A stretch of DNA of 64,000 nucleotides from Ginglymostoma cirratum (lineage: Eukaryota): positions 29,726,838 through 29,790,837 of the forward strand of contig JAHRHZ010000222.1 in the NCBI GenBank assembly GCA_024137785.1, in the 5' to 3' direction. The position numbers were made by a program, and so were the translations under genes. The notes beneath the pieces are model-generated. The model had not been told where the DNA came from. It did no database searches and saw nothing but the letters and a program-made list of their open reading frames with translations. Within the stretch, counting starts at the first letter, position 1, and each line of letters begins with the position of its first letter. Below, one piece after another: positions 12,211-54,500 of this stretch.

Positions 12211-13804
12211 GCCCCAAATAGTCCAACAAAAATCATTATAATTACTCTTCATAACTAGAACTACAGTTTTTTAAAATGCATTCACAATGCTTGCATTGTG
12301 AGTGGAATAAAATTGTGGATCTTTGATAGTAGTTGCATTACGGCAATTCCTACTCAATTTGCATTTCAACTATTCGGCACAATGGTTTAGTACACAGAAG
12401 CATCATAGTTTGGCTTTACTCTGCTGATAAATCGATTATAATTACTTAAAGTTTTTTTACTGGCAGAAATTTAAATAATTGGATAATCAGCTTGTCATCA
12501 AGCAGCTCATTCAGACAGGGATTATACGGACATTCGATTGGCCAATCAGACGTATGAAGCATCGTGATGATATTAGAGTAACAGAATTACTCCCCCTCCC
12601 ACTCCACTTTATTGGCTGGCTACACATGTACCTACTAAGAAACCTGATACAAATAAGTTAGTAGGTCGATCGGAGTGACGCAGATGTGGTTACTGTACAG
12701 GACATAGAATGCACATTTAATCAGGAAGTCAGACCCTTTAATGGTGGTTTAATGTATCTAAATATTGAATCAATCTTTTCAATAATCAATATTCAGTCAC
12801 CGACATAGTGGTCTATTACAACCCTACCTGTTGTTTATTCCAATGAAAGAAACCAGTATACTGGTGGAAATCAAGTTTCGGACCAAAGTTAGTTAGATCA
12901 GTTTAAATTTTTGTTCTTGAGCTGAAATTTGTGAAAATAAACAGGTGATGTACATTGCAAGATGAAGCCACTTTGAGTCCCTTCTTTTATATGGCATAAA
13001 CACATTTTTTTAAAAAAAGCATTTGTATACAATATAAACATTGGGGGAGAAAATGGTAGGGTGGGAGAAAGAAAAATAAAATTTTCATTTTGTAATGTAG
13101 TTTGTGGCCATAGCGATGTAATGGAACAAGCACAGCATCGTCAGTCTTAAATATATTAGCATACAATGGTCTTGTATTCTATTATCATACTACAATATGA
13201 TTTGAACATTGCTGATGTTTTATAACCCAGCTAAAATTCTCTTATTCCTGTTGCAGTTTTACAGAGACAATATTAGGTTCCACTTTTTTTCTGCTATTGA
13301 AGTGAAGTACATCCAGTGTTAAAACACAATTGCATTATATGCTGTAAACCAAAGCTATTGTACACCTGATATTAAAATCCTGAAGATACAAGACTGTTGA
13401 TGAACTGTGGGTCGTACATTTGGTATTGTCAGGACTGTATCATGCCAATAATAACTGTTCTAAATTGTAGCAAACATGATCTATAAATTTTAGTCCATCT
13501 TCTAACAAATATTCAACATAGATACCCAAAGAAAATTAAATTTAATCCTATTGGGATGCTCAATTTTTATAACACTTTCCTCTGTTGATTGAATACAGAT
13601 CATAAAGTCAAGAAATCAGTGATTACCTTAAAGTACTGAATTTTCTTTGCAGGATTCATAATATCTTGTATGTTGTAATATATCAGACAGAATATTCTGT
13701 AACTTTGAGACGCTGAATATTGTAATAGGATATTTGAAATCCAGGACATGTCAGTGGATCCTGTTATGTTCCAGATTTTATTTTTGTGAATAAACCAAAA
13801 GAAG

Positions 13805-14018
13805 ATTTTGCAGTTTATGTGGAGAGAGAAACATAGCTAACAGTTCAAATCCAATATGACGTCTTCTGAACTTCTTCATTTCTGAAGAGAATTCCGATTG
13901 AACTCAAAATGTTTAGCTCCATTTCTCTTTCCGCAGATGCAGCCAGACCGGCTAAGTTTCTCCAGCATATTCTGTGCATGTTTCAGATTTCTTCCAAGCA
14001 CAGTATATTGGTTTTCTA
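13805..14018. mobile_element. Old palindromic Penelope-related mini-element with decayed hammerhead
   Basis: Same family as 26766 and 51371; CTGAAGA at 13882-13888; flanked by AAACCAAAAGAAG at 13792-13804 and 14019-14031. Confidence 0.65.
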
Positions 14019-51509: not shown

Positions 51510-51545
51510 GTTCTGAGGAAACGTCACCGGACCCGAAACGTTAAC
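51510..51545 (+). ncRNA. Minimal type I hammerhead motif, base of stem II mutated
   Basis: gtt-CTGAGGA(51513-51519)-A-ACGTC-ACCG-GACCC-GAAA(51535-51538)-CG-TT-aac. Confidence 0.65.
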
Positions 51546-54500
51546 TTTGTATTTTCCTTCACAGATGCTGCCAGACTTGCTGAGCTTTTCCAGCAATGGT
51601 TATGTGGTCACCATTAAGCTAGCCTTTTTTAATTCCAGATTTTTTATTGAATTCAAATTTTACCTTCTGTCATATTTGTGAATCTCTATAATTCACAAAA
51701 TCAGAAATACTTGGTTAGGACTAAAAATTTTATTTCTGCAGTCTTTTCCATTTTTGTCTAACTTTGCAATTGTGTATCTGTGACATGGCATAATTAAGGG
51801 CCTAAATACTTCATAAGTATGCATTGGTTTCCATTGATCTGTGAAGGGCTCAGCAATGGTTTAATATTGTTATAGATGTGGTTTTCATTGCAGTGTTAAG
51901 TAAATAGTTATTTAGAAGGTTGGAAATACAGATAGGATAGTGAATGATAAATTATTACAATCTGGTTAATTTCCATCTTTCCTCTTCCAAACTAGAGTGC
52001 AGTTTCATGGGTGACTCCAACAGTGATTGTTGGATGATGATAAAGAGCTGGAGGTTTTACCAATTTTACCAGCTAAACCAGCAGGGCTGTAGCCCACTGC
52101 AGAGCATTTTCCTTCTTCATGGCCAAGATCAGGTAACTCCATACAGAATGAGCTAGGATCTTCTTGGTTTATGTCTTAATCACTCATAAGCCAAACTTTC
52201 TCCTTCCATACTTAACTTCTTCGATTAAAACAAACCTAATAACTGGGGGAGCTTAGCCACATCCACCGAGTACTGCTGCATAGAGTAGCTACCAGCTTCT
52301 GTGAAAACTATTGAGCTAGTCATCAAGACTAGTGATCAGCAAAGCTGGTGCTGACGTTAGATTACCTTTTGGCTCTTTACTAATGTAAGCTTGTTATTAG
52401 AATCATAAAACTGGTTAGTTATGTTAGTTTTTATCAATTATGATCTAGGTAGCTACTTTTGCAGCCTGGATAATTTGACAACAATATTTACTTTCTAATG
52501 TTTAAAAAATGTAAAAGTGTACTGATCAAAACTGATCCAGCCATCAATGTTACTTAGTCCTGAATCATTTCCAAATCTTTGGGTTGGCACCATTTATATC
52601 AAGAATGGGAGATTGAGCAAAAATGGACAATTCAATCAAATTTTAATTTTTGTCATTTTTGTTTTTGAAATCAATTGCTTTGCGATTAAGAATGAAGTAC
52701 GTTGAAGTCTGAGACTGTTTTCTGCTGTTATCTTTCAATACAAGTATAGCTGCACCTATGGCACCACTGGGTGCACCAGAGGTGGAACTAGTAAAAAGTA
52801 TTATCCTATGAATATGATGTTGGCATGGAAATAGGCAAGATTGGAGACATTCAATACTGGAATTTCATAATGGAGAAAAAAGACTCGGATATCTTGGTAA
52901 TCAAATTTCAACCAACCCACAGACTGATATTTGTCATAGAATACTGTCTGTTAACTCCTGTGACCTAAACCTAGGTCAATCGAATGTAAGTTTCGTCTAT
53001 GTTGGTAGCAGGTGGTATTTCATAAATGAAGTTAGTTCGACAGTTTTAATGGAGTTCTCAATTGGACGCATCTCTATCAAAGTGTCCAAGATTCAACACA
53101 AATTGCCATTAAACTGGTAACTCCTTTGAGAGAGGTTAAAAGGTTGGTGGAGTGAGAACAGGGAAAGCATGATATGGTATGTCAGGAAAGTACAGTATAG
53201 AGGTTGGTGTTAAGACACATTGTTGAGTTAAAGTGTAAATGTCACACAAAGGGCAGACTTTTTTCAATCCTCATAGGAAATGGGACTAGAGAATAGATGG
53301 TCCACAGTTTCCGGGCAATAACTGTTGCACTGGTTTGTCATCATCACCTCACCTCCAGGCTATTTCAGAATATGCCAGTGGGAAAAGGTTGTGCATCACA
53401 AGTGACAGGAAGCCAATTAAGTATATTAATGGGCCCATTATGGCCTCCCTTTGAATTTTACTGTTGGAACTTGGAGCCCCCTGAATCTAGCCCGAAGATG
53501 GCGGTGACTGCCTAGCATCGGACTGAGAGGGGCTAAGGGAGAGCAGTGCACCACTTGGTTTGTTAAATATTCCCTCCTCCCTCCCACCACACCCACAACA
53601 ACTTAACAGCTGTACTTGAGTTCAGAGTGCACTTTGTGGTGGTGCTCGCTTGTCTCTCTCATTCGTTATTGGTAGCACTCACCTCTGATGAGCTGCTAAA
53701 TAGTCAGTGTTGGAGGCCTTCCTGTTCCCATGGAAACCCACCTACTGTTCTTAACTGGACAGTGTACATGCAGACCTTGGCCACAAATTGTCTGTACCTT
53801 CAAGAATCACAGTGACAGACTCCATAATGCTCCTGATATAAGAGTCCCAAACCAAGAGCAAAACCTCTGCCAAAGTATGATCTGATCAATTATTTGGATA
53901 TTACCTCTGTTGTGATAATGAAATATTAGTGTTTGAGGTAGAAACATCTGTCACCGGTGGTGAATGTGCCAGTGAAATTGTCATTGGCTTTCCTGTACCA
54001 CAGATAGTTATGGAAATGAGAAATGATCCATGAGGTAAAGGAATAGTTGACCTTGTCATGCTGAGGGTAACAAAACTAAAATTGCCTCAGCATCCATTAG
54101 AACAGAATTAAGCTCAGCTTTGATGCCACAGCGATTGAATTGTCTGTCAATACTCACATTCACAGTTGAATAATGACCACTTGGGCAAAATCTTGGAAAG
54201 CAACTGACTGCACCTCAGAGAGGGGTCAATAGATTTAGAAAAAGACTGGCTTGGGAAATAAAGGTTGGCAGAAAAGGGGAAAGATGCCCTCCGTTTGTCA
54301 TTATTGTTGTTACAGAATGCAATACATTTTTTCAAAGATAGCATGTAGATTTCCATGTTAGGTGGTCCATTTATTGTGTTCTTTCTGGAGGCAGAATGGC
54401 TACAACTGAGCCACGTACCTACGGTAGTTTTAATAGGGATTCTTTTCCTTTCAGTGTGCAGGATTTGAGGAAGAAAATGAAATGATAGCTTTGTCAAGTG

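Follow-up and report, generated by a model that had tools for sequence, protein, structure and literature searches.

We analysed a 64,000-nt stretch of the Ginglymostoma cirratum genome (assembly GCA_024137785.1, contig JAHRHZ010000222.1, positions 29,726,838 to 29,790,837 of the forward strand; hereafter the window) that carries six hammerhead-bearing insertions with target site duplications (TSDs) on both sides. Judged by their sequences, the six are ordinary Penelope-like elements (PLEs), families A and B being of the Neptune type and family C of the Poseidon type; they are new members of known clades, whose layout, TSDs, tail and extra ribozyme nucleotide are already known. The 5' breakpoints of their genomic copies are clustered, and the cause of this clustering is probably mostly the start of the RNA, with the ribozyme responsible only in a few percent of family C. 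A previous sequence-only reading of the window had proposed that the ribozyme region sets the point of truncation or inversion during GIY-YIG-primed integration, by one mechanism shared among the families, and had set a uniform distribution of breakpoints against its own proposal; such a distribution was not seen.

Since few copies turned up in twenty 10-kb stretches chosen arbitrarily, sampling was guided by sequence patterns. Exact 32- to 35-mers downstream of the ribozyme match 18,407 (A), 38,021 (B) and 433 (C) times in the 4.36-Gb genome, and since copies were gathered by a motif downstream of the ribozyme, their 5' ends are unselected. On a scale where C3 of CUGA is 0 and negative positions lie upstream, 48/91 arms of family A (96/100 arms among the matches listed, less five dropped for N) end at -7..-1 and none at +30, the first base past the predicted GUU cut; 12/91 extend beyond -100 and about 22/91 end between +2 and +44, while the 3' ends cluster near +96 and +134. 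In family B (30 loci plus 12 incidental arms, six of the 42 dropped, n = 36), 14/36 arms end at -6..-1. Wider sets, with at most three mismatches and all loci included, place 99/197 (A) and 49/125 (B) at the same peak. By eye, about 75/100 copies of an old A-like family, among the matches listed, diverge within about 6 nt of CUGA, which the search pattern itself required. Upstream loose ends listed from contigs of other sequencing runs (four runs, one study) fall at -4/-3 in family B in three runs, X20-X22 (31755/31756 in the coordinates of the 31170 copy), and at -5/-3 for the 26754 insertion in one run (26767 and 26769, X22). Candidate cut-site peaks in these two families were rejected. At +30 in family A we found about 3-5 of about 45 breakpoints by eye (100 rows, about half of which were a 2-nt deletion variant); at +28 in family B there were about 12/100 rows, also by eye, but five of these fall on an AGCT palindrome, and a comparable peak at +26 reflects microhomology.

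Breakpoints thus gather near the ribozyme, as the sequence-only reading had it, but the main peak tracks a TATA box and not the ribozyme core. In 9/9 aligned read-through copies of family A, a TATA-like hexamer lies 29 nt before A(-4) of TCAGTT; the corresponding sequences are TATTTA (-35) and CCATTTC (A at -4) in family B, and TATAAA (-48) and TCGCTT/TCACTT (-18) in family C. A TATA box commonly precedes the transcription start by about 30 nt, the start itself conforming to the initiator (Inr) consensus. Here the peaks of families A and B stand 29-31 nt past their TATA boxes, and a small peak of family C stands 30 nt past its own. It is family C that distinguishes promoter from ribozyme, as its peak shifts with the TATA box: because breakpoints fall at -4/-3 in A and B but at -18 in C, the main breakpoint follows the TATA box rather than the core.

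The unselected arms of family C (90/100 arms among the matches listed, three dropped, n = 87) end anywhere from -457 to +39, mostly read through, and include 1/87 at -7..-1; the families therefore do not share this breakpoint equally, contrary to the proposal of one common mechanism. A pattern enriching for ends at -27..0 gave 189 matches. By script, 40 loci (41 arms) from the first 42 rows yielded 23 ends in that interval, 9/23 at -18..-16 (p = 4e-4) and 4/23 at -7..-1; by eye, 100 of the 189 matches gave 19 at -18..-16 versus 9 at -7..-1 among about 46 ends, and the remaining rows are read-throughs that contain indels or belong to a subfamily. About 18/100 rows come from a second Poseidon-type subfamily, which has this hammerhead but another sequence upstream of it.

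Alternatively, reverse transcription might be halted just upstream of CUGA by the folded ribozyme or by a protein that binds it, which is the sequence-only proposal in its strong form. The A/B peak does lie on the 5' strand of stem I, and further ends fall inside the ribozyme (the group at +2 to +44 in family A). However, family C, whose ribozyme shares this layout and has a longer stem II, shows hardly any ends at -7..-1 and a local peak at -18, outside stem I; besides, an enzyme that has reached -4 would already have copied the whole motif. We regard such a roadblock as unlikely.

Thirty loci found through the N-terminal coding region supplied copies that bear an open reading frame (ORF); four of these reach the 5' pseudo-long terminal repeat (pLTR), and the B-type copies L425 and L450 begin at -3 and -5. 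These copies bear on the idea that the short copies are a separate non-autonomous mini-element, descended from a few masters that started at -4 by chance. The tens of thousands of near-identical 3' segments would suit that idea, but ORF-bearing copies share the start point of the short ones, which lack an upstream TATA box, and junctions, fillers and partner lengths vary from copy to copy. It is very unlikely.

Family C also has ends at the predicted cut site. A pattern enriching for ends at +22..+41 gave 101 matches, of which 100 rows were judged by eye: about 62 are true breakpoints, and the others are deletions or mutated read-throughs. Seventeen rows (16 loci) of these about 62 breakpoints, distributed over 20 positions, fall at +34, the first base past GUC, as compared with one at +35, one or two at +33 and six at +30, two rows being ambiguous (all by eye). 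A script run on 16 fetched loci confirmed 13 of 15 picked +34 ends and read the other two as +31; the sixteenth had been read as +39 by eye. Partner arms of the +34 ends stop at 34, 34, 44, 35, 34, 34, 36 and 34, with one more at 34 further off, so that 0/9 pass the cut, yet 136/182 family C arms extend beyond -40. The +34 peak is small in numbers but only a single base in width. Microhomology does not account for the +34 ends, because only 1/8 adjacent +34 junctions shows an overlap. Among the unselected family C arms, 2/87 (L172 and L253) are of the cut-site class, and we estimate that the ribozyme sets the breakpoint, at the predicted cut, in only 2-3% of family C arms. The +34 peak would be an indirect sign of hammerhead cleavage in vivo. 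We would give even chances to the broader proposal that the genome is a fossil 5'-end map of Penelope RNA, in which dozens of Poseidon-type copies start at the hammerhead cut, the minimal PLE hammerhead cuts its RNA in the germ line, insertion of the cleaved RNA still takes place, and a single RNA molecule yields both arms via two tandem reverse transcriptases working from the long and the short start sites.

The pairing of inverted arms bears on the one-RNA proposal. Leaving out 60 loci selected for long ends, adjacent inverted pairs combine one long and one short arm in 42/47 (A), 26/28 (B) and 8/8 (C) cases, 76/83 in total. Long and short arms differ some 65-105 nt downstream of the cut, in what corresponds to the published tail between two reverse transcriptase (RT) start sites (PMC11167929; this and the other papers are cited from the accessible parts of their texts). 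Pairs in which only the short arm sits at the peak number 20 in family A and 9 in family B, as against 5 in each family in which only the long arm does (p = 0.003, pooled). Six long arms of family B consist of tail only (5' ends +83 to +99), overlaps of 1-5 nt occur at 17/47 A junctions, and many junctions carry filler. In family C, both arms end at -18/-17 in three of six paired -18..-16 arms from the unselected rows, and two more partners end downstream. A read-through arm was paired with a start-site arm in 0/41 TSD-validated A and B pairs, where about three would be expected if the arms were independent (a hand estimate). This fits two enzymes on one RNA, the short-site enzyme leading and the long-site enzyme trailing. 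Mixed-family inverted pairs (4/105) were considered as two-RNA events and dropped, as they share no TSD and look nested.

Instead of both nicks, the inverted arm might stem from fold-back self-priming of a single cDNA or from an antisense template (PMC3846280). Palindromic junctions with both arms at -18 or +34 and the short junction overlaps in family A are compatible with this, and fold-back likewise predicts one 5' limit common to both arms. Simple fold-back of a cDNA made on sense RNA, however, needs the long arm to reach furthest, whereas it is mostly the short arm that stands alone at the peak; the tail-only long arms of family B and the filler at many junctions are also at odds with it. 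We hold this route to be quite unlikely.

We consider it probable that reverse transcriptase runs off the 5' end of the RNA, set either by transcription start or by self-cleavage, and that both arms derive from one RNA. This account builds on the breakpoint positions, the TSDs and the long/short pairing described above. A TATA/Inr promoter in the pLTR would direct RNA synthesis from -4 in families A and B and from -18 in family C, and a GIY-YIG endonuclease would nick both target strands 12-14 nt apart. The two nicks may then prime cDNAs on a common RNA, the first from the long and the second from the short internal start site, or the reverse; cDNAs begun close to the front of that RNA would become run-off arms of 100-140 nt, and those begun on the 3' pLTR would become long, randomly truncated arms. 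After a putative hammerhead cut, both cDNAs would stop at the new 5' end (+34 in family C). Finally, the two cDNA ends would be joined head to head, often with filler, presumably through strand displacement and end joining.

Several points weigh against this account. The transcription starts at -4 and -18 are inferred from genomic breakpoints, and the A/B peak, with a width of 7 nt, falls together with the 5' strand of stem I. A cap-derived extra G, which a capped start should leave, is not significant (27/81 versus 23.5 expected in family A, p = 0.23; 9/49 versus 14.2 in family B), although family A ends at -4/-3 taken alone give 18/42 versus 12.1 (p = 0.036). Among the four ORF-bearing copies that reach the 5' pLTR, L432 can be aligned as far as -15 and L435, a partial tandem, carries upstream sequence, leaving 2/4 that start cleanly at the peak. 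Start-site ends are rare in family C (3/182 arms), and the contrast with A and B is unexplained; in one locus (L371), the partner of a C arm that ends at -16 extends to -44. As for cleavage, the +34 tally was made by eye and the script confirmation concerns picked rows, and families A and B show no clear cut-site peak. Moreover, for Poseidon of Anolis carolinensis (PAc), uncut RNA was the main in vitro substrate, and no RNA-seq reads ended at the cut in the accessible part of that report (PMC11167929).

The assignment to PLEs draws on several features. An A locus (L144) matches RVT_1 in Pfam (31.5 bits, cut-off 29.6), whereas RT fragments of families B and C (L162, L199) gave no Pfam match; a B locus (L141) matches GIY-YIG with E = 0.007, under the Pfam cut-off, and no GIY-YIG match was obtained with Pfam for window fragments or family C. 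In total, 5/7 fragments tested had no Pfam match. YIGETKR and conserved Cys/His residues, seen by eye, are what we take to be the motifs of a GIY-YIG endonuclease. The elements probably carry GIY-YIG-type ends, as the sequence-only reading had supposed, recognised from motifs by eye and from a Pfam match under the cut-off. A C-x4-C-x2-C linker precedes the endonuclease at 46192-46923 in the window and at L141, L169 and L201 (families A and B). As this linker is the mark of Neptune elements (PMC8557442), A and B are placed there. The family C loci L173, L180 and L190 lack the linker motif, and the family C consensus has an AUG at +6, inside the hammerhead, that opens 36 codons; because the linker Zn finger is absent and the AUG lies within the hammerhead as in PAc, we assign family C to Penelope/Poseidon. 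The pLTR is followed by the ORF in L425, L432 and L450, and in each of the three families the 3' ends form two groups about 36-40 nt apart. Two other classes of element were ruled out. Miniature inverted-repeat transposable elements (MITEs) and other DNA transposons have symmetrical terminal inverted repeats and a fixed short TSD; the ends here are asymmetric and the TSDs measure 8-16 bp. Head-to-tail hammerhead arrays of the retrozyme type were not found in the window, the collected copies are single or head to head, and non-LTR retrozymes were set aside for want of head-to-tail tandem units. PLE arms of one family also sit within copies of another (L053, L260, L270, L143), and downstream of the ribozyme the family A consensus has two polypyrimidine-CAG stretches (+37..+51 and +86..+110) that look like splice acceptors.

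The predicted ribozyme comprises the core CUGANGA and GAAA, stem II, the extra base and a palindromic stem III. An Rfam scan returned no hammerhead family at E <= 1, so that the ribozyme is recognised from its motif and stems. An extra base follows A9 (A in families A and B, T in C) in 199/202 hammerhead motifs from the window and the collected loci, in line with the earlier claim that several families keep one layout. Many hammerhead copies in the window are mutated. Read-through family C copies (L256, L268, L275, L185 and many rows) have often lost stem II or the entire core to short internal deletions, one of them between CTGA repeats at 0 and +33.

All six direct repeats of the window occur with the lengths and mismatches reported before (13/0, 13/0, 12/1, 17/2, 14/0 and 15/0 in order of position), and none can be extended; a similar search of 400 random 200-nt pseudo-insertions, draws holding N being skipped, found no repeat of at least 12 nt. 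That they act as TSDs agrees with a length mode of 12-14 bp in the collected copies. Empty orthologous sites were not found in contigs of four public runs, where 25610, 26754 and 31170 were all filled. Four insertions (13792, 25610, 46062 and 51356) consist of head-to-head arms with one longer 3' end, as the sequence-only reading had described, and two (26754, 31170) are single arms.

The old A-like insertion at 13792..14031 (TSDs 13792-13804 and 14019-14031) has arms on both strands, a short inverted one at about 13810-13871 (minus), followed by an 8-nt filler, and a long one at 13880-14017 (plus); these limits were set by eye, and BLAST spans 13922-13990 of the long arm, which holds a decayed hammerhead with C3 at 13882. 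The family C pair at 25610..25818 (TSDs 25610-25622 and 25806-25818) joins a long arm at 25621-25713 (minus, +114..+23) to a short arm at 25713-25806 (plus, -17..+76), whose 5' end at 25713 adjoins the family peak at -18. Its minimal type I hammerhead lies at 25730..25763 (plus), with the predicted cut after 25763 (+33), and its extra U at 25737 is the U of the AUG that opens the 36-codon stop-free frame in the consensus. The A-like single long arm at 26754..26919 (plus; TSDs 26754-26765 and 26908-26919) starts at -5/-4 (26767/26768), with C3 at 26772. The 5'-truncated read-through copy of family B at 31170..31867 (plus; TSDs 31170-31186 and 31851-31867) contains, in order, the endonuclease C-terminus, the 3' UTR, TATTTA at 31724, the Inr-like CCATTTC (A at 31755), the hammerhead at 31759-31786 and a short 3' end at about 31850. 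Family A accounts for two inverted pairs. That at 46062..47023 (TSDs 46062-46075 and 47010-47023) has an 837-nt read-through arm with a short 3' end at 46076-46912 (minus), comprising a Zn-finger-like linker, the endonuclease, a mutated TATA box at 46193-46198 and C3 at 46165, and a long-ended arm at 46922-47009 (plus) that begins at +44. In the pair at 51356..51608 (TSDs 51356-51370 and 51594-51608), the long arm at 51370-51510 (minus, -5..+136) and the short arm at 51510-51596 (plus, -3..+83) both end at the family peak.

A seventh PLE insertion, a family B read-through single arm with a short 3' end and a damaged ribozyme, occupies 35571-35883 (minus) and is the source of a 94% inverted match to 31521-31850; two further old A-like arm remnants lie at 22325-22372 and about 28037-28090 (minus). 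Isolated hairpins at 11175-11284 and 61917-62050, with 33- and 28-nt arms 44 and 78 nt apart, are unrelated to the PLE consensus and are possible remnants of DNA transposons or non-coding RNAs. The window also holds a 35-nt direct repeat (41952-41986 and 42624-42658, 91% alike, spacing 672 nt) and another dispersed repeat family of 73-93% identity (10650-11095, 24627-24939, 33180-33503, 38694-39303 and 51197-51226).

Both target nicks prime on one RNA in L1 twin priming as well, which leaves a 5' inversion inside a TSD with non-overlapping arms; here, by contrast, most arms have a stretch of 50-100 nt in duplicate and begin at either of two fixed internal sites. Endonuclease-bearing (EN+) PLEs are described as having inverted partners truncated at the 5' end and, optionally, a tail of 30-40 bp at one end (PMC8557442), and inverted pLTRs with TSDs were explained by self-priming in a study that also noted a putative TATA box and Inr in an Adineta pLTR (PMC3846280). 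The shark copies resemble EN+ PLEs of the Neptune and Penelope/Poseidon clades in their 5' truncation, inverted partner, tail, TSDs and pLTR hammerhead. Unlike those accounts, which invoke self-priming and whose accessible text gives no breakpoint distribution, we find that three families peak at TATA+30 and that one of them also peaks at the cut site. PLE transcripts were reported to start in the upstream pLTR (PMC6765202), and Drosophila Penelope to have a TATA-less internal promoter (PMC2377424). In PAc, predicted to form a dimer, the tail is the span between two internal RT start sites, and both strands are nicked and extended (PMC11167929); the two start sites, the presumed double nicking, the predicted dimer and, in family C, the putative ORF start codon within the hammerhead are features in common. 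Cleavage was unnecessary for PAc in vitro, whereas family C has copies starting at the predicted cut, often in both arms. Animal non-LTR retrozymes are likewise pLTR-derived and non-coding with a type I hammerhead, but form head-to-tail arrays, whereas the shark copies are single or head-to-head arms (bioRxiv 10.64898/2026.07.22.740005). The extra nucleotide and opposite-strand hammerhead pairs were already published by Cervera and De la Pena (2014), who state that evidence of cleavage in vivo is lacking for minimal type I hammerheads (PMC4209133); the +34 peak of family C would supply such evidence indirectly. Publications mapping PLE 5' breakpoints against promoter or cut site were not found in a search outside of which subscription papers and supplements lay.

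The route by which PLEs make inverted, tailed insertions and the cutting of their hammerheads in vivo are called open in the accessible parts of PMC8557442, PMC4209133 and PMC11167929. On both, the breakpoint map makes predictions to the base: RNA should start at -4 and -18, the cut should lie at +33/+34, and one RNA end should limit both arms.

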